A stretch of DNA of 64,000 bases from Mytilus edulis. Its lineage: Eukaryota. Under the pieces are notes generated by a model. The model searched no databases and was not told the DNA's origin. It worked only from the letters and a program-made list of their open reading frames with translations. Below, in pieces: positions 155-61,319 of the stretch; position 1 is the stretch's first letter, and every line of letters begins with the position of its first letter. A program made the position numbers and the translations under genes. Location of the stretch: contig NC_092346.1 in the NCBI RefSeq assembly GCF_963676685.1, positions 103,478,001 to 103,542,000 on the forward strand. The letters are read 5' to 3'.

Positions 155-194
155 TAATAAAGTATTCTTATTCTTATTCTTATTCTTATTCTTG
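155..194 (+). repeat. AATAAA followed by (TTATTC)n microsatellite tail, probable 3' end of a non-LTR element
   Basis: aataaaagtattcttattcttattcttattcttattctt; a similar motif occurs near 60930-60960. Confidence 0.45.
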
Positions 195-391
195 ACCTTT
201 ACTTTGATATTGACACAGATTAAAAACATTTTAAAAGGATGATTTTAACTTTCCAATTGTCAATTTACCCATGTCTGAATAGATCTATCTATTTAGTACC
301 ATCATATAATGTGCACATATCTCAATTAATACCTTTAGCTCATGCATGTTGAGTCAGTACAGACTTCATTAATAGGGGTATACTGTAATGA

Positions 392-1330
392 TCCTGTAAA
401 ATCAACACTAAGGCCGGAATTGTCGCATACCGTACGCCAGATTCGCCGTTTCAAGTGTGGCAAATCGACATTTTTGGACCAATAAATCCAATATCTCCAA
501 CAGGAAATCAATATGTTTGCACGGCGATTGACCTTTTTAGTAAGTTTGTATTTGCCGAGGCTATTCCTACCGCCGATACTATTACAGTGTCTGAAGTTTT
601 ATTCAGGATGGTTTCGCAGTTTGGTGTATTTGATACTATAATCAGCGATCAAGGCTCCGAATTCATCAGTAAATGTTTCAAAGAAGTTTGCCGGTTACTA
701 GACATAAATCATGAATACACCCCGAGTTTTGCACATCACTGTCTGGGTGCGTGCGAACGTTCGCATAGAACTTTAGCCGAACGCATGACTCCATACATTG
801 CAGATGGTAAGAACTGGCAAGATTTATTACCTTGTATTCTTTTCTCAATGAACAATACCGTTAACGCCAGTCTAGGATATTCTCCATTTGAGATAGTTTA
901 CGGCAGGAGGCCTAATTTTCCATTAACCGGACATTTTAGACAGGATATAAACACGCTTCCAAACGATTGTCATGAATATGTTCAAAATTTGTGCGCAAGA
1001 TTAGAAATAATTCGATCAGAAGTGAAAGAACATGCATTAACTTCTCAAATAAAAATGGTGGAACGTGTAAATGACAGTTTGAACCCTCTACAGTACGCAG
1101 AACATGATTATGTTTATCTCAGCAAAAATCCTACAGGACAGGGACAAAAACTGAAATACCGTTATGCTGGGCCATATATCATTCATAAAATTCACAGTCC
1201 TCATATGGTAGTTTTGAAGGACCCAGATTCACAAAAATGCCTTCCGAATCCTATTCACATTAATCGGATAAAACCGGCGTACGTGCGTCAACCAAATCCT
1301 GCACAATACTTCATGGATCATTCAAGTTGA
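392..1330 (+). pseudogene. Gypsy-type DDE integrase core with GPY/F motif; N-terminal zinc finger missing
   Basis: WQIDIFGP (D), IISDQGSEF (D), GACERSHRTL (E), YSPFEIVYGR, YAGPYII; frame open from 392 with no ATG before the first catalytic Asp. Confidence 0.9.
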
Positions 1331-1337
1331 AACAAAA

Positions 1338-1820
1338 ATGCATGTAAATACAACCACGGACCAAAATACTGCATCGGACTTCTCTGAAACAAGTGAATTA
1401 TCGAATACGACAGTGTCACATTCTGAAATAAATGACAATGATTCAAATGATACAGAGAACGACACAGGAAAAATTGTGATGAATAACAATTCAAACAATG
1501 CGACAGACGAACAAACAAAAAAGTGCAAAGGGAAAAGTATTCAGTCCCCAATCCGGAAATCAACCCGATTAAAAAAGAAACCAGCTCGGTTTGAAGATGA
1601 AAGTTTCACCGATCCAGGAGACGAAACTGTTTCGAGTGATGAAAATCGTTTTTACAAAGTTAAACGAATACTTGCTAGGAAAATTGTGGACGGAACAATG
1701 AGTTATTTAGTTCATTTCATTGGAGAACCGGCTCAAAATGCCCGTTGGCTAAAGGAGTCCGATTTTGACAAGAAAACCCGTGATTTGATAAACCACCGAC
1801 CACCTCCACAAATTCTTTAA
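1338..1820 (+). pseudogene. Integrase C-terminal linker and chromodomain, frameshifted relative to the core
   Basis: FYKVKRILARKIVDGTMSYLVHFIGEPAQNARWLKESDF matches the chromodomain pattern; different frame from 455-1330. Confidence 0.75.
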
Positions 1821-3046
1821 GTCGTTTTGTGTCCGTGAGGTTTACCTCATGATACACCGTTTTTTTTAATGTTTTATTCAGACGTGAGCGTTTAATTTTA
1901 TGGAACGCTCATATTGTACATATTTGTTGTAAAATTCAAGACAATTGCCAATGCTTGACGAGGATGTTTATTTTGAACCTTTTTGTCCGTGAGATTTATC
2001 TCATGACAATTTATTAATCTGTGTACAGCGATGTTTTTCTTGAACTTATTGTCCGTGAGATTTATCTCATGACAATGCCCTTTGATGATGGTACAACGAC
2101 TTTTTCTGGCGAACTTTTCATGTTTTTGTCCGTGGGATTTATCTCATGACAATCCGTTACTATGATATGCTAAACACTTGTGCATTTTTATACATGTAGC
2201 TTTTTTATTTCAATTTCATTTACATAAGTATCATCTAGTCATTAATATTTGATTTATTTAATTTTGTAACATAATAGCAGAAAGATGGTACTGCGTTTTC
2301 AGATTTGTAATTCAATAATTATTTTCTAGGAAGAATGCCGAATTTTGTATCTTTATATTGAACATCGATCTTTACTATTTTTGAAATATGTTGATGAGAT
2401 CGTATGAATATGGTTCATTTTGTATTTAGTGGATTTTTAAGGAAACACGATAGTGATATACAGTTTCATTAGCAAACAAATTGAGGAAAATGTAGAGAGA
2501 ATTTTTTTTTTTGGTTTTTTTTTTTTTTTTTTTGCATTGTATAAAGACGGAAATCTGTAGTTAACGTCCTTTTGGAACTTTTATGACGATTGTATTATCT
2601 AGGATCTATGTTAGTGATATCGAAATAATTTCATAAATAAACCCCGTGAATTGTATCTTTCTGATATGTTTTATCTGTTAGCAATTTTATATTTTTTTTA
2701 TGAGAGTGTGTGTGCGTAAATGGGTTTGGTGCACCATGATTCTGTGAGAGACAGTTGATATATTTTTTTGAAACTTGCAACTTATGAAATGTGATCATTA
2801 TAGGACATCTTCACAATATTGTAAGAGTTAGGGGCTCTGTTGAATTTATTACTCAATGATACATGTATCACGAAACAATTTCGGATCTGTAAAAATATAT
2901 TTAACTACTAACTTTCAAAAGTTGAGATTTCGCAACGTCAGATAATTGTAATTTTTCATGCTGTGTTTTGAGATGGTATATGAGTTGGTGCATATATATT
3001 GTAAAGCGAATTCAACCCTGAGCAAAATTTACATTTTTCTTTTGTC

Positions 3047-3246
3047 GGGGGGGATGTAATATATATAGGGGGTTGAATCCGCGTTTCCGGAAATACTGTT
3101 CAGTCCGTATATGATTTTGTTATATACATGTATGTAATCGTAATCACATGTACTGTCTCTTTTTCGTTTTGCAAGTGCCATTAAAGGACGTAATTTTATT
3201 AGCTGTTGATATTTTGCCTCTCGCACCCCCATACAGGATCATTACA
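3047..3246 (+). repeat. Polypurine tract (3047-3054) and 3' LTR (3055-3246, ~192 bp)
   Basis: GGGGGGGA immediately followed by TGTAAT...ATTACA; ATTAAA near 3180. Confidence 0.75.
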
Positions 3247-4043
3247 ATACTCCTGACTACTTAAAACAGGCCGCAGATTTTAAAGGGATTTTAAACTTAT
3301 TAGTCGGCAACAATATCAAAACATCATGGCAAAAGTTGAAGAGCAGTGTATGACAAACAAAATCCTACAAAACACTACATAGGAATCTAAAGATCAACAC
3401 GACCCTTACTGAAAACCAGGGGGTTATCTCAAGTGCCCACGGAAGGTTTAGCAGATTCGGTTCTAATTGTGACACTGAAGTGTCGAACGTGGAAATTAAG
3501 ATTTGGTGACATGTACTAAATTATGAGGAAGAACTGGCAACTGAAATAGACACAAAATAAGTGTTTATATCACCATATCAAGAATAATGTTACCTTTATA
3601 TGTTGTGACCCAACTCACTAGCAATATCTTTTCGCAAACTACAAATATATATTGCCAATAACCCAGACATCTAGTAGGGTACTGGTTTTAATATTTATTA
3701 AAACAATATACATTGATAAAACTCATAAGCATAAGCATAAATAAAATCATAACAATTATTAATAAGAAAATGTATTTGAGAGAGAAAGAAATGGCAAACT
3801 CGTTATCATCGACAATCCCGCTGGTCAGGAAAAACCAACTAAAACGAGTGAAATCGTGGAAAAAAGTTGGAAACCTGTGTCTAAACCTATTAAATGCTTT
3901 GATAGTAAAAGTCTATTATTATTAAAAAAAATAAAATTCCATTTTTAAATAATAATTAAACAAAAACTTAACATTTCTTAACAAGTTTTCATGCTATTCC
4001 TTGAAATGAGGGAAACTTTTGTATCATAATTAAAAATGCATAA

Positions 4044-4345
4044 GGGAGCTACCATTTGATTTTTATGGGGGGGGGGGGGGGGGGGGGGGGGGGCTAGGAT
4101 GAAAAATTTTGTCCTGCATTTTTTTTTAGCTATAATCTCTGTCCTGCCTTTTTATTTTTCACTCTGTTCGGTCCTGCCTTTTTTTTTTAGTTTATCCCGA
4201 CTTTTTTTTACCTTAATTGTCGTCCTGACTTTTTTTTTTTGCAAGTGTCTCATCCTGCCTTTTTTTTTACTCAAAACTCCTGTCCTGCCTATTTTTTTCA
4301 AATTTCATCCTAGCCCCCCCCCATAAAAATCAAATGGTAGCTCCC
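4044..4345. mobile_element. PIF/Harbinger (Tourist-like) MITE
   Basis: TIR GGGAGCTACCATTTGATTTTTATGGGG / CCCCATAAAAATCAAATGGTAGCTCCC; TAA TSD; same family at 56664-56836. Confidence 0.85.
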
Positions 4346-6249
4346 TAAATGACACTACCTGCCTCCCTAATGTTTTTATAAAAATTAGCCAGTGAACATG
4401 TTCATGCTGTCTGGTTGTTATAAAAAAACCCACAAGAAAACTATTGTCCAGCTTGTACAATTTTGTGTGAGGCATATACCTATACAAACAAAATAAGCAG
4501 TAGTCCGGTTAAATTTAAATTGGTACTATGAAGCAGAGAGGAGCATAAGTTAAGGATCAAAATAAGCTAAAAATATTGATGATTGTTGAACTCCTTTTCA
4601 AGATATTTGATATCTAATACATGTATTTAAAAAATGATGGGAAATGGCTGACTCAGCATTGGCATTCTTTGGGTGTAAAATCTTAAGAAAAAGAAATATA
4701 GAATCTGCTTAGATTTTGGTAAATGACCTTTTATGAAATTTTGAAGTCTTAAATATGAAAAGAAAAGTGGGTGATATAGTGCAAAATATTTTACACTGAA
4801 TAATAGGAAGAAACCATAGGAGTTCAAAAATGATAATCTGACAAAAATTCCTAAACCTGATGTGACTGCTTCTTTAAAAGGGTTTCAAATTTCATGAATT
4901 TTATTTTAACACTAGAAAATAAAAATTCATAGGATATGATTTTAGTAAATATAAAGTTTCATAACAGTTTTGACATAGCAAATCAATTTGGAATTATAAG
5001 CAGCTCATACTTATATATAAATTTTCATAACAATCTTCGCACAAAAAGAATATTTCTAACAAATACTAAGTTTAATTCATCAAATTTGACACTGGAAATC
5101 TATTTGTCATAGCATAGTGTATCTATATAGATGTATAATTTATTGTGTGTATATATATGTATTTTGATTATAATCTCAGCACTGTTTTGATTTTTTTTTT
5201 TAACAAAAACTATGTTTTTACTGTAATGGATTATTCCCCTTTTTTATCCTTACTTATCACTAAGTATTATAAGCTTTAACAATGACAAAATAGAAAATAG
5301 ATAAAAAAAAAAAATGATTACATTGTGTTAAAACAAAGGAAAATAGATATTTTTGTTCACAAATTATGATGTTGTAATTTGCATACAGATTAATTAACTA
5401 ATGAAGCTGTAACTGTATATCAGAAGAAGAAATACAATGAAAACATGCAATAAGGTTTTTTTGCAAGATACAGAGCTCATGCATCAATGAAACAGATTTT
5501 TTTGCACTAGGTTTGTTATGATAAATGAACTATTTCATACTATTTGGTGCCATATACAGTACCTTATGCTTCTATTCAAATATATATGGTGTTATTTTAA
5601 GTACTTATAAATAGTAAAATCTAGCTGGTGTCATATAAGTATTTTATGCTTCTGTTCAAATCTATTTTGTGCCATATTTTAAAAGTACCATGTTCTAGTA
5701 AATTCTATAGGTGCCTTATAATTACTTTTATTTCAATGATATTATGATTATTTATATTTACAAATGTTAATAAACAAACTGATATTGTTACACAGTTTGT
5801 TCTTATGAATTCATAGAAGACTGATTGATTGGTGTTTAAAGCCACTATCAGCTCTGTTGCCTTCCTTATGGCAGGATGAAAGGAGAGTGCAGAGAAGACA
5901 GAAGTATTGGTAGGAAGTTTGAGTTGAACACCTGCTACGTGGATAATTCATATTAAATTTCTTTATTCATTTGAATGGTCTATGAAAGATTCATTTATGA
6001 TAATTGTAAATCTTTTATAACAATATGTCAGGGATTGCTTGAGTATTTATCGATGTTTGCATGTTTTAATTTCTAGGACACCTTCATCAGAATAAGAACT
6101 ACAGATGAGTACAAAATGGTGAAGTGATAATTCGCACTTCAAAGTGTCAACAGGGGGAATAATCATCAATAGAAAATGAAAGTAGGTATGAAAGTAAACT
6201 TTAAAAAGAATGTTAAATAAAATTTGTTTAAAAGCGTTTAATTAATTTT

Positions 6250-14829: not shown

Positions 14830-17800
14830 AACATTATTGGTGTCAGGATGGTTATATCTGACACTATCAGTCTAACGCCTTCCTTATAAAGGATCACAGA
14901 CAATCATATAGTCAAGAGTATAGTCTTTGAAGATTGATGTCCAGGATACAGATGGTGTCAGGATGGTTATATCTCACACTATCAGTCTAACGCCTTCCTT
15001 ATAAAGGATCCTAGACAATCATATAGTCAAGAGTATAGTCTTTGAAGATTGATGTCCACGATACTGATGGTGTCAGGATGGTTATATCTGACACTATCAG
15101 TCTAATGCCTTCCATATGGAGGATCCTAGACAATCTTCTAGTCAAGAGTACAGTCTTTGAAGATTGATGTCCAGGATACAGATAGTGTCAGGATGGTTAT
15201 ATCTGGCACTATCAGTCTAATGCCTTCCTTATGAAGGATCCTTGACAATCTTCTAGTCAAGAGTAAAGTCTTTGAAGATTGATGTCCAGGATACTGATGG
15301 TGTCAGGATGGTTATATCTGACACTATCAGTCTAATGCCTTCCATATGCAGGATCCTAGACAATCTTCTAGTCAAGAGTACAGTCTTTGAAGATTGATGT
15401 CCAGGATACTGATGGTGTCCGGATGGTTATATCTCACACTAACAGTATAATGCCTTCCTTATAAAGGATCCTAGACAATCTTCTAGTCAAGAGTGTAGTC
15501 TTTGAAGATTGATTTCCAGGATACTGATGGTGTCAGGATGGTTATATCTGACACTATCAGTCTAAAGCCTTCCATATGCAGGATCCTAGACAATCTTCAA
15601 GTCAAGAGTACAGTCTTTGAAGATTGATGTCCAGGCTACTGATGGTGTCAGGATGGTTATATCTGACACTATCAGTCTAATGCCTTCCTTATAAAGGATC
15701 CTAGACAATCTTCTAGTCAAGAGTGTAGTCTTTGAAGATTGATGTCCAGGATACAGATGGTGTCAGGATGGTTATATCTGACACTATCAGTCTAATGCCT
15801 TCCATATGGAGGATCCTAGACAATCTTCAAGTCAAGAGTACAGTCTTTGAAGATTGATGTCCAGGCTACTGATGGTGTCAGGATGGTTATATCTGACACT
15901 ATCAGTCTAATGCCTTCCTTATAAAGGATCCTAGACAATCTTCTAGTCAAGAGTGTAGTCTTTGAAGATTGATGTCCAGGATACAGATGGTGTCAGGATG
16001 GTTATATCTGACACTATCGGTATAATGCCTTCCTTATGAAGGATCCTAGACAATCTTCTGCTTCATCTCATGACAGAAAACCAACATGATGAATTGGAAG
16101 ACAGTAGAGGATCCTAGACTGTAGAGGTTGATGTCTAAAACATTATTGGTGTCAGGATGGTTATATCTGACACTATCAGTCTAATGCCTTCCTTATAAAG
16201 GATCCTAGACAATCATATAGTCAAGAGTATAGTCTTTGAAGATTGATGTACAGGATACTGATGGTGTCAGGATGGTTATATCTGACACTATCAGTCTAAC
16301 GCCTTCCTTATAAAGGATCACAGACAATCATATAGTCAAGAGTATAGTCTTTGAAGATTGATGTCCAGGATACTGATGGTGTCAGGATGGTTATATCTGA
16401 CACTATCAGTCTAACGCCTTCCTTATAAAGGATCACAGACAATCATATAGTCAAGAGTATAGTCTTTGAAGATTGATGTCCAGGATACTGGTGGTGTCAG
16501 GATGGTTATATCTGACACTATCAGTCAAATGCCTTCCATATGGAGGATCCTAGACAACTAGACAATCTTTAAGTCAAGAGTACAGTCTTTGAAGATTGAT
16601 GTCCAGGATACTGATGGTGTCAGGATGGTTATATCTGACACTATCAGTCTAATGCCTTCCTTATAAAGGATCACAGACAATCATATAGTCAAGAGTAAAG
16701 TCTTTGAAGATTGCTGTCCAGGATACTGATGGTGTCAGGATGGTTATATCTGACACTATCAGTCAAATGCCTTCCATATGGAGGATCCTAGACAACTAGA
16801 CAATCTTCAAGTCAAGAGTACAGTCTTTGAAGATTGATGTCCAGGATACTGATGGTGTAGGATTGTTATATCTGACACTATCAGTCTAATGCCTTCCTTA
16901 TGAAGGATCCTAGACAATCTTCTAGTCAAGAGTAAAGTCTTTGAAGATTGCTGTCCAGGATACTGATGGTGTCAGGATGGTTATATCTGACACCATCAGT
17001 CTAATGCCTTCCTTATGAAGGATCCTAGACAATCTTCTAGTCAAGAGTAAAGTCTTTGAAGATTGCTGTCCAGGATACTGATGGTGTCAGGATGGTTATA
17101 TCTGACACTATCAGTCAAATGCCTTCCATATGGAGGATCCTAGACAATCCTCAAGTCAAGAGTACAGTCTTTGAAGATTGATGTCCAGGATACTGATGGT
17201 GTCAGGATGGTTATATCTGACACTATCAGTCTAATGGCTTCCTTATAAAGGATCCTAGACAATCTTCTAGTCAAGAGTAAAGTCTTTGAAGATTGATGTC
17301 CAGGATACAGATGGTGTCAGGATGGTTATATCTGACACTATCAGTCTAATGCCTTCCTTATGAAGGATCCTAGACAATCTTCTAGTCAAGAGTACAGTCT
17401 TTGAAGATTGCTGTCCAGGATACTGATGGTGTCAGGATGGTTATATCTGACACTATCAGTCTAATGCCTTCCATATGGTGGATCCTAGACAATCTTCAAG
17501 TCAAGAGTAAAGTCTTTGAAGATTGATGTCCAGGATACAGATGGTGTCAGGATTGTTATAGCTGACACTATCAGTCTAATGCCTTCCTTATTAAGGATCC
17601 TAGACAATCTTCTAGTCAAGAGTACAGTCTTTGAAGATTGATGTCCAGGATACTGATGGTGTCAGGATGGTTATACCTGACACTATCAGTCTAATGCCTT
17701 CCATATGGTGGATCCTAGACAATCTTCAAGTCAAGAGTACAGTCTTTGAAGATTGATGTCCAGGATACTGATGGTGTCAGGATTGTTATAGTTGACACTA

Positions 17801-20262
17801 TCAGTCTAATGCCTTCCATATGGAGGATCCTAGACAATCTTCTAGTCAAGAGTAAAGTCTTTGAAGATTGATGTCCAGGATACTGATGGTGTCAGGATGG
17901 TTATATCTGACACTATCAGTCTAATGCCTTCCTTATAAAGGATCCTAGACAATCTTCTAGTCAAGAGTACAGTCTTTGAAGATTGATGTACAGGATACTG
18001 ATGGTGTCAGGATGGTTATATCTCACACTATCAGTCAAATGCCTTCCATATGGTGGATCCTAGACAATCGTCTAGTCAAGAGTGTAGTCTTTGAAGATTG
18101 ATGTCCAGGCTACTGATGGTGTGAGGATCGTTATATCTCACACTATCAGTCTAATGCCTTCCTTATAAAGGATCATAGACAATCTTCTAGTCAAGAGTAC
18201 AGTCTTTGAAGATTGATGTCCAGGATATTGATGGTGTCAGGATGGTTATATCTGACACTATCAGTCTAATGCCTTCCTTATAAAGGATCCTAGACAATCT
18301 TCTAGTCAAGAGTACAGTCTTTGAAGATTGATGTCCAGGATATTGATGGTGTCAGGATGGTTATATCTGACACTATCAGTCTAAAGCCTTCCATATGGTG
18401 GATCCTAGACAATCTTCAAGTCAAGAGTACAGTCTTTGAAGATTGATGTCCAGGATACTGATGGTGTCAGGATTGTTATAGCTGACACTATCAGTCTAAT
18501 GCCTTCCTTATGGAGGATCCTAGACAATCTTCTAGTCAAGAGTGCAGTCTTTGAAGATTGATGTCCAGGATACTGATGGTGTCAGGATGGTTATAGCTGA
18601 CACTATCAGTCTAATGCCTTCCATATGGTGGATCCTAGACAATCTTCAAGTCAAGAGTACAGTCTTTGAAGATTGATGTCCAGGATACTGATGGTGTCAG
18701 GATTGTTATAGCTGACACTATCAGTCTAATGCCTTCCTTATGGAGGATCCTAGACAATCTTCTAGTCAAGAGTGCAGTCTTTGAAGATTGATGTCCAGGA
18801 TACTGATGGTGTCAGGATTGTTATAGCTGACACTATCAGTCTAATGCCTTCCTTATGGAGGATCCTAGACAATCTTCTAGTCAAGAGTGCAGTCTTTGAA
18901 GATTGATGTCCAGGATATTGATGGTGTCAGGATGGTTATATCTGACACTATCAGTCTAAAGCCTTCCATATGGTGGATCCTAGACAATCTTCAAGTCAAG
19001 AGTACAGTCTTTGAAGATTGATGTCCAGGATATTGATGGTGTCAGGATGGTTATATCTGACACTATCAGTCTAATGCCTTCCTTATAAAGGATCCTAGAC
19101 AATCTTCTAGTCAAGAGTACAGTCTTTGAAGATTGATGTCCAGGATATTGATGGTGTCAGGATGGTTATATCTGACACTATCAGTCTAATGCCTTCCTTA
19201 TGGTGGATCCTAGACAATCTTCAAGTCAAGAGTACAGTCTTTGAAGATTGATGTCCAGGATACTGATGGTGTCAGGATTGTTATAGCTGACACTATCAGT
19301 CTAATGCCTTCCTTATGGAGGATCCTAGACAATCTTCTAGTCAAGAGTGCAGTCTTTGAAGATTGATGTCCAGGATACTGATGGTGTCAGGATTGTTATA
19401 GCTGACACTATCAGTCTAATGCCTTCCTTATGGAGGATCCTAGACAATCTTCTAGTCAAGAGTGCAGTCTTTGAAGATTGATGTCCAGGATATTGATGGT
19501 GTCAGGATGGTTATATCTGACACTATCAGTCTAAAGCCTTCCATATGGTGGATCCTAGACAATCTTCAAGTCAAGAGTACAGTCTTTGAAGATTGATGTC
19601 CAGGATATTGATGGTGTCAGGATGGTTATATCTGACACTATCAGTCTAATGCCTTCCTTATAAAGGATCCTAGACAATCTTCTAGTCAAGAGTACAGTCT
19701 TTGAAGATTGATGTCCAGGATATTGATGGTGTCAGGATGGTTATATCTGACACTATCAGTCTAAAGCCTTCCATATGGTGGATCCTAGACAATCTTCAAG
19801 TCAAGAGTACAGTCTTTGAAGATTGATGTCCAGGATACTGATGGTGTCAGGATTGTTATAGCTGACACTATCAGTCTAATGCCTTCCTTATGGAGGATCC
19901 TAGACAATCTTCTAGTCAAGAGTGCAGTCTTTGAAGATTGATGTCCAGGATACTGATGGTGTCAGGATTGTTATAGCTGACACTATCAGTCTAATGCCTT
20001 CCTTATGGAGGATCCTAGACAATCTTCTAGTCAAGAGTGCAGTCTTTGAAGATTGATGTCCAGGATACTGATGGTGTCAGGATGGTTATATCTGACACTA
20101 TCAGTCTAATGCCTTCCATATGGTGGATCCTAGACAATCTTCAAGTCAAGAGTACAGTCTTTGAAGATTGATGTCCAGGATACTGATGGTGTCAGGATGG
20201 TTATATCTGACACTATCAGTCTCATGACTTCCTTATGAAGGATCCTTGACAATCTTCTAGTC
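14830..20262. repeat. Tandem array of a 115-bp unit (~46-47 copies); longer, more diverged units at ~14490-14830
   Basis: Period 115 (agtctttgaa at 17281, 17396, 17511); units carry GGATCC and the IR actgatggtgtcag / ctgacactatcagt. Confidence 0.95.
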
Positions 20263-20689
20263 AAAAGAAAGGTTGATCATAAAATCGTCAGCGTCATTCA
20301 AAGGCAAAATAACAAATAAGCCAAAGTGGTGATTGGGGAAAAGCAAATTTGCTACTGTTCTACAATCAAATTTCAGAAGGTAGTTTAGCTGATTTTCCTC
20401 AACAATGTTTAGAACTTCAGTTCCATTGGATCTGTCTATCAAAATAGGATCTGCGTATGAAAATCTTTTTTTAAAATGGTAGGGATAACTCATATATGCC
20501 TATAGCAGAAGTGAAATCTCCAATTTTATCAAGTTTATATCCCCCTGTTTTCTAGAGCAGTAACATCCAATGTCTTTTGCACAGCTGAATACTTACCATC
20601 ATAAAGCACAGGTCCTACCCGAAATTCAGCACAATATCTATAATTTTGATGAACAATAAAATAAAATGCATGACTACAAAAAAATATGT

Positions 20690-54710: not shown

Positions 54711-55629
54711 CCTGTTGGAACAAATATTCTATACCATTTATTCCGTTAGGAACATTTACTGTAATATTTATTTCAGTGGAAATACTATATATTCCAGAAT
54801 ATTGTTTCCATTTGGAACTTATGTTATGAAGGAACTTCTCATTCCGTGACAGATTATCATAGTATATAGGGAATCACTGAGTGAAGTATGACTGGAGCCC
54901 CCACCCCTTTTATCTCAGTCATCTCCCCTCTCATAACAAGTTCTGGATCCCCCACTGTATTCTAACATCTGAAGTCGATTTCACAAAAAAACTTAGTTAC
55001 GACTAATTTCACTAATATTGATCGTAAGTATACTGATTTGTTCATGACTTAAGACCAATCTTAGTCGTAAGTATACTGAATTGTTGACTTACGAAAAATC
55101 CTAGTCGTAATTTTTTTTGTTGTGAAATTGACTCCTGCTGAAGAGTATATGTGTTTCTAATCAGTGGTGTTCAAATCATACGGTGTTCTCTCAGGAATCT
55201 ATAGGCTCCGTTTTTTGTTGTACCTCTCTTATTATTAATCATAGCCGGCTTTAAGGTCGTCTTTAACTTTTTCACAATTTGTAAGAAAATAGGGTATGTG
55301 ATTATTTGACTTGTCTCAGTTTTTGGTAATATATGGTTTTATATCTATTTATGTTATTACTCGCCGGGTTGGCGGGACAGTCAAATAGGCCAGCATGGTT
55401 TAAAGTTAGATGACATTTATGCCATTACCACCGACGGTTCAAGTTCAGTGTTGTAAATAGCTAGGTCAGATAGGTTTTCAGAGCCTCTCATGTGGCCGAG
55501 TTCTCCGTGAACCTGTGCCGTTAGACCACAGTTTGTTGATATTTCTTTTTTGTGATTTTGCGTTTTGAATATCTTTGTCTTGTGCCCTGTTCATTTACTA
55601 TTATGTTGCTTTACTCTTTGTCTGGAAAT

Positions 55630-57737
55630 AAAAGCAAAAAAACTGACTACAGTGGCATAACATCACTTAAGCAGAATGGGAAACTTATTACTGACACCAA
55701 ACAAAAATCTGACGCACTCAACAGGCAGTTTCAATCAGTTTTCTCAGAACCAAACAAAATCACTGCTACTGAATTTGAAAACAATCAATACATGCAACAG
55801 AAAACAGCGTACCCTACCATGCCTGACATAAATATCACCATCCAAGGTATCTCAAAATTACTTCTAAATTTAAATCCATCCAAGGCAAGTGGACCAGACG
55901 AACTTAAGCCACGTCTCCTTCGGGAGTTAGCACATGAAATTTCACCAATACTATGCCTTATATACCAAAAATCATTAGACACTGGCGAAGTCCCTACTGA
56001 CTGGCGTACTGCACATGTTTCACCCATCTATAAGAAAGGTTCCAAATATAATCCAGAGAATTATAGACCTATTTCTTTGACATGTATATGTTGTAAACTT
56101 ATGGAACATGTTGTAGTTAGCGCAATCATGACACACGCAGACAAACATAACATCCTATATCCCCTACAACACGGCTTTCGAAAAAACAGATCTTGTGAAA
56201 CTCAACTTTTGGAATTTGTAGATGATGTCACTAAAAATATGGAAAACTCAAAACAAACAGATGTACTTATAATGGATTTCTCCAAAGCTTTTGATAAAGT
56301 CAGTCATAACTTGTTAACACACAAATTAAATTATTATGGGATACAGGGGAAAACAAATGCATGGATACAGGGCTTCTTATCATGTCGTACCCAAGCAGTC
56401 ATTCTAGAGGGCGAGACTTCAGGCTATGTCCCTGTAAAGTCCGGAGTGCCTCAAGGATCTGTTCTGGGCCCAAGTCTGTTTTTATTTTATATTAACGACA
56501 TACCAGTTGGGCTAAATTCCACCATACGCCTATTTGCAGATGACACCATTGCATATCTGGTAATAAAATCAAACAGTGATTGCGAAACCCTTCAAAAAGA
56601 CCTCAACACACTAGGCATTTGGGAAAATACATGGAAAATGGCTTTTCATCCTGACAAGTGTAAGGGAGCTACCATTTGATTTTTATGGGGGGGGGACTTT
56701 TTTTTACATAAATTGTCATCCTGACTTTTTTTTTTTGGCAAGTGTCTCATCCTGCCTTTTTTTTTTACTCAAAACTCCTGCCTATTTTTTTCAAATTTCA
56801 TCCTAGCCCCCCCATAAAAATCAAATGGTAGCTCCCTAATGTCATGTCCATCAGCCGAAATAAAAATCCATTCGTTTATAATTACACTTTACATGGCCAC
56901 ATTCTTGAACATGTCGATAAGGCAAAATACCTAGGTGTGACAATTCAATCCGACCTAAAATGGCACAGTCACATAAACAACATCTGCAATAAAGCCAACA
57001 GCACTCTAGGTTTTCTTCGAAGGAATCTTAACATCAGTTCCACCTCAGTAAAGGAACAGGCATATAAATCTTTAGTCAGACCATCACTAGAATATGCCTG
57101 TTCAGTTTGGGACCCTTACTTTACTGAGGATATTAACAAAATAGAAAAGGTACAAAGAAGGGCTGCTAGATATGTCACTAACCGACACAGAAACACCTCA
57201 AGCGTTAGTGACATGCTAGATCATTTAAAATGGAGAGACCTTGCTAACAGAAGAACAGATGCACGCCTGGTCATGTTCTATAAAATTACATATCATCTCA
57301 TTGCAATCACAAAAACAGACAGATTAATTCAACCGCTCAGACAGTCCAGGAACATGCACACACTCTCATACCAAATTCCATCCTGCAGAACACAAATAAG
57401 ACAACAATCATTTTTCCCACGCACAATTAAAATCTGGAACAGCCTTCCCCTGAGTATTGTTATGAGCGACTCTATAGAGTCGTTCAAAGTAGCCGTCTCA
57501 AACTACACCTACAGCCCATAAATTCATCATGTGTAAATAGTTTTATCTTAATATTTTAAAAATAATAAATTAAAAATATGCACTACCACTATGTAAAAAT
57601 TTTTTGTTTTGTTTATTATCACAAATTTGTATATTTCACTGTATATATGTCTTCACAAAGCAATGCGCAGTACAAGTGACGTAAACTTCAACGTGTTGAA
57701 GGCGGTCATTACATAGTAGAAGTAGAAGAAGAAGAAG
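55630..57737 (+). mobile_element. 5'-truncated CR1-group LINE (RT domain and C-terminus), interrupted by a MITE
   Basis: ENYRPISLT, QHGFR, MDFSKAFDKV, SGVPQGSVLGP, LFADD, KYLGV, LEYACSVWDP; stop at 57521; (GAA)n tail ending ~57737; no endonuclease or ORF1. Confidence 0.92.
56664..56836. mobile_element. PIF/Harbinger MITE, internally deleted copy of 4044-4345
   Basis: Identical TIRs and TAA TSD; removal restores the LINE frame FHPDKC-NVMSISR. Confidence 0.9.
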
Positions 57738-59211: not shown

Positions 59212-60342
59212 CTAAAGTCGTGTTCTAGATAATACAGGGTAGATATTGGACCGCGATCGCGACGGTCTTTGATTAAAACAGGGAAATCTTCCAAAACAAG
59301 TATGGACAAATGTTTCTCTAAAATCCTTTGTCCCAAGAGCATATATTACTGGATTCAAAAATGAATTTGAAAATCCTAATATCAGCAAATGTGTCCCGAC
59401 AATGTCCTTAAGAAAACAAGTCTTGTCTTCACAGATGATCTGTGCGATAGATGTGATCAAGAAAGGCATCCACGTCAATAGAACACATCCAAACACAACG
59501 GTGAGAGTTTTCAAAGATTTTGCTGTCCTTGCAGAAATTCGTAATTGTCCGTTACTTAATCTAGGCTGAGTAATGTTTTCAATAGATTCAATTCTTTTTA
59601 TGTGAATTTGCGCATTTTTGTACAATCTCCCATAGATCACAAACATGGCTGTAATTGGAATAAAAACGCAGCTGGAAAATAATACAATTATGTAATTAGC
59701 CGGTACAACATACAAAAAGGAGCAATATTTATTGTACGTTGACACACGCCATCCCATTAATGGCAAGAATCCAACAGCAATAGAAATAATTGATACCAAA
59801 ATAATTCCAAATATCACTCTTTCCCGTTTCACTATTTGAATATATCTTAGTCCTTTAAAAACAGCGATGTATCTGTCTATCGCAATTAGCATTAGAACTA
59901 ACAAAGAATCAATACAAGCAGCTATTGTAAAACCAATACGAACCAAACATAAGTCTAGAGTTTTCTCTGAAGCTCTTGTTACGAGAGTTCCAATTGAGAC
60001 AAAGCCAACGCAAAGGTCTGCAAACCCTAGAGCAGCAATTAGCATGTATGTCGTGTTGTGAAATTTTTTGTTGACAGCAATCACCAACAAAACACAGACA
60101 TTGATGGCAATAATCAAAATAGTCAGTGGTATAAGACAAATCTGCTTAATGTTTTCATGAATACTATCTGTAGTGGAAATGCATTTCAGAGAATTTGAAA
60201 AGTTTTTCGAGTCGACAACTTCTAAATTTTCACATGAGTTCCAGAGAGAGCATTGTATATTCCTATTTTTAAATGTTGGTTGCAGTATATCAATCCATTT
60301 AATAAAGTTACGTCTTGCAGGAGCTAAAGCCGTCCAATTCAT
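59212..60342 (-). CDS. Intronless class A (rhodopsin-family) GPCR, loosely adenosine/GPR119-like
   Basis: Seven hydrophobic segments; TM1 IN, TM2 LGFADLCVG, DRY, TM6 WMP, TM7 NSFLNPVIY, helix 8 KDFR; 376-aa intact ORF. Confidence 0.92.
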   Translation of the reverse strand: MNWTALAPARRNFIKWIDILQPTFKNRNIQCSLWNSCENLEVVDSKNFSNSLKCISTTDSIHENIKQICLIPLTILIIAINVCVLLVIAVNKKFHNTTYMLIAALGFADLCVGFVSIGTLVTRASEKTLDLCLVRIGFTIAACIDSLLVLMLIAIDRYIAVFKGLRYIQIVKRERVIFGIILVSIISIAVGFLPLMGWRVSTYNKYCSFLYVVPANYIIVLFSSCVFIPITAMFVIYGRLYKNAQIHIKRIESIENITQPRLSNGQLRISARTAKSLKTLTVVFGCVLLTWMPFLITSIAQIICEDKTCFLKDIVGTHLLILGFSNSFLNPVIYALGTKDFRETFVHTCFGRFPCFNQRPSRSRSNIYPVLSRTRL

Positions 60343-61319
60343 TTGAATGTGTTAAAATTAATTCCAAATTTTACTTGGGGATAAAAATAGACTTTTTATC
60401 ACGTATCACAATTAGTTAAGAAAACAATCTGATAACTCCAAATATATGAATTAGATAAAAGAATTATTAACTACTTTTTAAGAAGTATTTAACCGATAAT
60501 CTGTTTATTCCTGTAAGAAACCTTATCTACGAATGACGTGTGGCGATTACAAAATCTGTATGTACATCTGCGCCTTCCCTCTTCAAGTAAGATGAAATCA
60601 TCACAATTGCTTGTTCAGAAACGGATATATAATGACAAGATAATATGAAAAATGTTGAATATTGAGTATAATGGACTCTGAAATAATGACACGGCGGCCG
60701 GCATGATGTGGATGTTTAGAAATGTTATTGAAATAGCGATAAAAGAGGTCAAATACATGTCAAATCTGTAATTCCATTCTTTTATTCACAATATACATGT
60801 GGTTTTGGCTCTGATTCTGACCAATTTTTATATACTAAATATATATTTATATGCCACATTGTTGTTGATACCAATTATGTAAATCAATTGTATCTAATTT
60901 TATGCCCTTTATTGGCCCTTTAATTTGGGAATTAAAAATACCCTATTCTATTCTAATCTATAAAGAAAAAAAAGTAAAAAATGAATTATAAGAAAAGGCA
61001 TATTACACATTGCAAAAGTGTCGTTGTTCTACGACTTCATAGCAAATGAACCTCATTGTCTTAAGACGTCTCGAGACAGTCTTGAGACATACACCTTATG
61101 TCTTGAGACATAGAGCATACGTCTTAAGACATGAAACCATTGAAGATGTGTCTTGAGACATGGAATATATGTCTTAAGACATGTATCTTGAAGACATTTT
61201 TGAAACTTCAAAAATTGTATCCTCTCATCCAAGACGTCTTGAAAAAAAATGTTGGTGTCTTGAAGACATTGAAACAAAAAAATACCAGTGGCCCATAAAA
61301 TATATTCTAAACACATAAA

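Follow-up and report, generated by a model that had tools for sequence, protein, structure and literature searches.

A Gypsy retrotransposon fragment with two U5 ends in Mytilus edulis and its likeness in outline to Ginger transposons

Background

Ginger1 transposons, as described by Bao et al., are bounded by terminal inverted repeats (TIRs) of 40-270 bp, make a 4-bp target-site duplication specific to CCGG/CCGT, and encode a transposase of 500-800 aa with YPYY, H2C2, DDE and GPY/F motifs plus an OTU or Ulp1 domain (PMC2836005). The same account gives Ginger2/Tdd elements TIRs of ~50-180 bp, an H2C2 zinc finger and no GPY/F motif, and treats excision by integrase as unproven even for Ginger1 (PMC2836005). 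GingerRoot elements, which occur in hundreds of copies, carry an integrase-like gene close to Gypsy integrases, without a chromodomain, between TIRs of 100-150 bp and make a mostly 6-bp duplication (PMC6839031). Among retroviruses, aberrant HIV and ASLV proviruses are described in which one truncated end was extended by copying viral DNA of either strand; such host-repaired ends usually show long duplications or deletions in HIV, with the normal duplication usually missing (PMC5041404).

An insert that recalls several of these systems occurs in a 64,000-nt stretch of the Mytilus edulis genome (NC_092346.1, positions 103,478,001 to 103,542,000 of the forward strand; hereafter the window). A preliminary description, made from the sequence alone, had presented it as a Gypsy fragment with two U5 ends resembling a Ginger-like transposon. 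A literature search retrieved no description of this architecture; its coverage excluded the majority of subscription papers, among them older studies of retroviral deletions and Ty1 autointegration.

Structure of the insert

The two-ended structure is present in the assembly. The insert (window 384-3246) represents the 3' third of an element, from the integrase core to the 3' LTR, and belongs to a Gypsy family that has spread recently. The left target-site duplication, ATAC (380-383, no strand; 4 bp, the family size), is followed by TGTAATGATCCTGTA (384-398, minus strand), which repeats in inverted orientation the terminal 15 nt of the LTR, the U5 att end (3232-3246), and then by integrase sequence. 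The integrase remnant (398-1330, plus strand; Pfam rve, E=1.4e-17) is without a zinc finger and retains the residues D 467, D 647 and E 755 (D-35-E) and GPY at 1169, as expected from the DDE core and GPY/F motif first reported. The copy had also been said to lack an ATG; an in-frame ATG is found at 608, but this first one lies downstream of the first catalytic Asp. Four extra nucleotides (1318-1321, plus strand), private to the window copy and missing in 4/4 compared copies and 4/4 read runs, shift the frame ahead of the chromodomain, in agreement with the frameshift described earlier. The C-terminal part of the integrase continues in another frame (1322-1820, plus strand) and includes a chromodomain-like stretch at ~1653-1790, with a Chromo match (E=0.0018) that is below the Pfam cut-off.

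The 3' untranslated region (1821-3046, plus strand) is associated with four short repeats (1814-2153) and has a private deletion of ~279 bp after 2165. As first described, the right end comprises a normal polypurine tract (PPT; 3047-3054, plus strand) and a 3' LTR of 192 bp (3055-3246, plus strand), the latter 100% identical to LTRs at several other loci, and the second ATAC (3247-3250, no strand) completes a perfect duplication. The window copy is devoid of gag, protease and RT, and no 5' LTR or primer site was found in the window or in the 8 kb upstream, while the parents have both; the copy is therefore predicted not to retrotranspose. Without 5' LTR, primer site and zinc finger, and frameshifted, it is a predicted immobile dead end.

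The parent Gypsy family

Searching the 1.37-Gb assembly with the LTR yielded 40 scored matches, and seven full-length copies (~8-10 kb, two LTRs each) were among those retrieved. One full-length copy encodes, by Pfam, gag, protease, RT, RNase H, H2C2, rve and a weak chromodomain, which is the Gypsy order; of the Gypsy features tested, PR-RT-RH-INT order and gag are present in the parent, and the PPT, a TG..CA LTR and a short duplication in the window copy. Family LTRs with an intact start begin TGTAATAT (one begins TGTTATAT) and end in ATTACA, the primer site TGGCGGAG directly adjoins the LTR, and a 4-bp duplication flanks 15/15 two-ended family copies. The window copy shares this duplication length and is ~99% identical to the full-length copies over integrase, 3' untranslated region, PPT and LTR, although it is without two direct LTRs or a primer site. 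Its divergence from 12 other copies is 0.6-2.8%, with three private substitutions in 2.85 kb. The protein identity of its integrase to nine Gypsy-family copies (98-100%) places it with these copies, and the DNA identity to the parent settles its origin. Its private indels, of 4 nt, 11 nt and ~279 nt, indicate that the copy may have changed after insertion.

Some of the full-length copies carry an extra open reading frame upstream of gag (L046:814-1578 and L042:944-1474), which has no Pfam match above the cut-off and is missing from other copies. In several sister families (L142, L144, L147, L174 and others) the LTR ends in TA, AA or GA rather than CA, the duplications are of 4 bp and the primer site TGGTGGAG is directly adjacent; the integrase of this clade thus seems to tolerate non-CA right ends.

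Comparison with Ginger and related systems

The window unit is a Gypsy fragment that resembles Ginger in outline only and is not a Ginger. What stands of the Ginger-like label are the TGT..ACA ends and the length of the duplication; most of the defining features tested are absent. With Ginger1 and Ginger2 it shares these ends, a 4-bp duplication, a Gypsy-type DDE core and GPY/F between inverted repeats, and a length of 2.9 kb, and the TGTNR termini of both groups are found as TGTAA at both ends, as they are in the parent LTR. In contrast to Ginger1, the inverted repeat is 15 nt rather than 40-270 bp, the duplication is ATAC rather than CCGG/CCGT, and only DDE and GPY are present, with no H2C2, a frameshift and no intact open reading frame; no OTU or Ulp1 match was found in the unit. 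From Ginger2/Tdd it differs in the 15-nt repeat, the missing H2C2 and the presence of GPY. Unlike both groups, the unit is single-copy (its junction is covered by one of eleven genomic matches and recurs in 0/68 other copies), keeps a PPT and an LTR, and is a direct piece of a Gypsy family.

The likeness to GingerRoot lies in an integrase-like gene, close to those of Gypsy, between inverted repeats, and the long TIRs, high copy number and missing chromodomain set GingerRoot apart (PMC6839031). The resemblance to the aberrant HIV and ASLV proviruses concerns the extension of one truncated end by copied viral DNA; in those the host repaired the ends (PMC5041404), whereas both ends of the window insert look integrase-made. 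Neither group of proviruses is flanked as a rule by the normal duplication seen here. Copy-back defective viral genomes, in which the polymerase copies its own 5' end to give complementary termini, replicate further, whereas the window insert is a single DNA copy, integrated, whose stem measures 15 nt.

The left junction

As first reported, the left end matches the final 15 nt of the LTR exactly in reverse complement, the match breaking off at nt 16, and the fusion to integrase just past the missing zinc finger is likewise borne out, the join at 398 falling right after the H2C2 zinc finger of the full-length copy. Where the parents read GAAATTGACA followed by AAAATC, the window reads GATCCTGT followed by AAAATC. 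The diagnostic part of the match is shorter than 15 nt, since the first six nucleotides (TGTAAT, 384-389) also equal the normal LTR start and A398 (nt 15) is compatible with both sides, leaving 8-9 of the 15 nt. The chance of eight diagnostic nucleotides is ~9e-6, which implies that these 8-9 bases were templated from the U5 end in inverted orientation; the left end of the window copy is thus a templated inverted U5 end.

Two candidate accounts of the junction were rejected. No family LTR begins TGTAATGATCC, and the intact starts given above exclude a family whose LTR normally opens with the 15-mer, the circumstance in which the insert would have been an ordinary internal deletion. Microhomology had been proposed for inspection at 395-400 and amounts to one nucleotide, A398; with so little, a homology-guided switch was rejected.

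On the side lying ahead of a minus-strand polymerase, the breakpoint is bordered by the end of a perfect 6-bp stem, and such a stem within 1 nt is found at 0.8% of internal positions, a post hoc figure calculated with the site already seen. Over 40 nt, the breakpoint has an average folding energy (50th percentile), and neither the U5 minus strand nor the retained side folds unusually (z 0.53 and 0.01, respectively). A two-LTR deletion copy, L054 (G000:C2:2697379-2700979), resumes in integrase 10 nt past the breakpoint of the window copy.

Just 5' of the break the parent reads TTGACA, which is loosely att-like. This motif would suit the insertion of a whole LTR, inverted, into the integrase gene and its later trimming to 15 nt, either by autointegration or by a route of the kind proposed by Bao et al., in which opposed LTRs were the source of Ginger1 TIRs (PMC2836005); inversion circles are also described as forming in particles (PMC7197481). 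Joins made by integrase carry an att end, however, and the internal join here lies 14-15 nt inside U5; the route would also require that ~177 nt were lost in the absence of homology and that the element was mobilised once more, and we regard this route as extremely improbable.

Search for recurrence

Window 384-520 has 11 matches in the genome, and the first 14 nt are covered only by the window's own. A pattern search for the junction returned two hits besides the window, both without similarity to the family, and its control, the reversed pattern, returned five hits against three. The relatives screened comprised 77 stretches, 17 of the own family and 60 of sister families, the latter being part of 151 integrase matches picked by rank and partial length; 68 of the 77 have a 3' LTR end. 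None of these 68 other copies has a duplication-flanked inverted U5 match beyond the natural 6-7 nt, and all 15 copies with the distal 3' untranslated region were inspected and included no second case. The unit shows no sign of further movement, and the independent mobilisation that several loci sharing the junction would have indicated was not borne out, with no second junction locus in the genome.

A reverse-transcription jump as the probable origin of the left end

The most economical origin of the left end is a jump during reverse transcription, giving a cDNA with two U5 ends that was inserted normally by integrase, and we hold this reading with moderate confidence. Having copied the 3' third of the RNA, reverse transcriptase would have stalled at the stem, immediately 3' of the codons for the integrase zinc finger, and switched to nt 15 of a minus strand, whose first 15 nt it then copied. 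Because the primer site abuts the LTR, minus-strand DNA begins TGTAATGATCCTGTA, and the outer limit of the left end coincides with the starting point of minus-strand synthesis. Either the 5' end of the molecule itself (copy-back) or an abortive minus strand made from the particle's second primer may have served as template, and the sequence fits both. The minus-strand template switch of the preliminary description is favoured, while a switch onto the molecule's own 5' end is indistinguishable from one involving a second primer or a second cDNA. The product would be a cDNA with two U5 att ends, and its insertion, with the usual 4-bp stagger, was likely the work of integrase provided in trans. 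That such ends would be competent for integration agrees with in vitro work in which HIV integrase prefers U5-U5 pairs and makes a normal duplication (PMC8742673), and Ty1 integrase is described as acting on 15-bp U5 probes (PMC8487063).

Several observations favour the reverse-transcription jump. One switch accounts for everything, the duplication has the family length rather than the long duplications or deletions usual at host-repaired HIV ends (PMC5041404), a 6-bp stem lies at the breakpoint with the independent L054 break 10 nt away, and the copy looks young, with an LTR 100% identical to others, three private substitutions and the empty site in 6/7 runs. Against it stand the average folding energy and the fact that a hairpin could stall DNA polymerase too, the absence of a second case among the 68 other copies and of the junction from the seven runs, the six outer nucleotides, which could be the original LTR start, and the private indels acquired by the copy, possibly after insertion. 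Furthermore, a single A:T pair is less than the RT clamp described in PMC3035444, which needs 2 nt including C or G, so a strict clamp does not fit.

The duplication and the host read-through had been taken to mean that the unit inserted in its present form. This does not follow, as an internal deletion sparing TGTAAT keeps both. In L048 (G000:C11:78658404-78666636), the 5' LTR is without its first 27 nt, a 4-bp duplication (AGAC) is intact and directly abuts this abnormal left end, and the host repeat reads through, bar one base; duplication and read-through are therefore no proof of two good att ends at insertion, a point that also weighs against the reverse-transcription jump. It is thus possible, though we think it rather improbable, that a normal two-LTR copy inserted and that a later repair or replication error deleted ~6 kb, from nt 7 of the 5' LTR to integrase, the filler of 8-9 nt being copied from the other end of the LTR and primed by the LTR's own 6-bp inverted repeat. 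The outer six nucleotides would then be the normal LTR start and the duplication would be left intact, and internal deletions are common in these elements (8 short two-LTR deletion copies among 20 stretches examined) and occur privately elsewhere in the window copy; the L048 break at the element-host boundary likewise left its duplication in place. A deletion of this kind nevertheless requires two switches separated by kilobases, of which the second had a homology of 1 nt, in a copy that looks young; inverted filler was seen in none of the 11 other deletion junctions inspected, and a full-length allele was not seen at the site in four runs.

Integrase might instead have co-inserted the U5 ends of two cDNAs, after which host end-joining fused the free arms, one of them trimmed to the 14-15 bp that now adjoin integrase. 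A 1-nt microhomology fits end-joining. U5-U5 pairs from two molecules are also the favoured in vitro product (PMC8742673), and an arm of 15 bp comes close to the shortest att sequence in use (PMC8487063). This sequence of events is unlikely, as it leaves the breakpoint stem and the neighbouring L054 break unexplained and requires repair of a break capped by two arms; the literature search found no in vivo example.

Further aberrant copies were observed among the relatives. L048, L057 and L059 have independent breaks at LTR positions 28, 30 and 36, ~25 nt past a TATA-like run, and these positions may reflect where transcription starts and a mis-transfer of strong-stop DNA. The short copies L053 and L057 have one common internal deletion junction and different duplications (ACTG and TATT), so that this type is a non-autonomous derivative that moved at least twice. 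In L055 (G000:C4:4796430-4799881), internal sequence is joined exactly to the first base of the LTR without a purine tract, which fits a nested insertion followed by LTR-LTR recombination.

Host site, reads and age

The insert lies in a host repeat, whose left part, a decayed RT C-terminus, occupies 185-379 (plus strand) and whose right part occupies 3251-3400 (plus strand). The peptide remnant, which contains stops, resembles the end of a putative Penelope-type RT. In 15/19 paralogous host-repeat loci the two flanks are adjacent within 3 nt, and the element therefore interrupts one repeat.

The empty-site form was found in 6/7 read runs examined, although empty-site contigs may partly derive from paralogous host repeats. 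The junction was seen in none of the seven runs examined (24 listed), a weak absence given that contigs drop rare variants and that the reading of X24 covered only 3%. Independent read support for the junction is missing from these runs, as would also be expected of a young insertion private to one animal. No listed run has more than 0.88 of the words of 200-700, and none of the seven examined has all of them. A normal LTR start after the left flank, as in a full-length allele, was not seen in the four runs examined closely. With the empty site in six runs and the junction in none, the insertion is likely young and polymorphic.

The same absences, together with another family copy (L050) that abuts an assembly gap, could mean that the insertion is real and its junction was introduced by faulty assembly or polishing. 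We consider this very unlikely: a young insertion private to one animal would be equally absent, the junction is clean with both flanks joining the host repeat through an exact duplication, and it is hard to see how an assembler would produce eight inverted bases there.

Elsewhere in the window are a small MITE-like element (4043-4346), whose inverted repeat of 33 nt is perfect and which contains 30-nt repeats internally, and a tandem array (14838-20264) of ~46 copies of a 115-bp unit, 92-93% alike. Window 55540-57521 presumably encodes an RT of the non-LTR type, split over two frames, and a single-exon open reading frame of 379 aa at 59212-60351 is assumed to resemble a G-protein-coupled receptor.

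Implications

The insert is one inactive copy with no sign of DNA movement and no read confirmation, and the rival explanations could also account for it. That reverse-transcription jumps regularly make two-U5 inserts carrying integrase, that transposons of the Ginger1 and GingerRoot type were founded by such a slip occurring some hundreds of bases nearer the 5' end, where the whole integrase would be kept, and that the window insert is a fresh snapshot of this step, is a doubtful proposition. The pattern of a duplication, an inverted U5 end, internal sequence and a 3' LTR can be counted in genomes. The insert itself, unique and predicted to lead nowhere, illustrates how Ginger-like ends might be reached, and it touches on the question, stated as open in PMC2836005, of how LTR elements could acquire inverted ends. 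The product that it shows is a simpler one: a single switch would suffice to flank integrase sequence with att ends in inverted orientation, the whole lying within a normal duplication.
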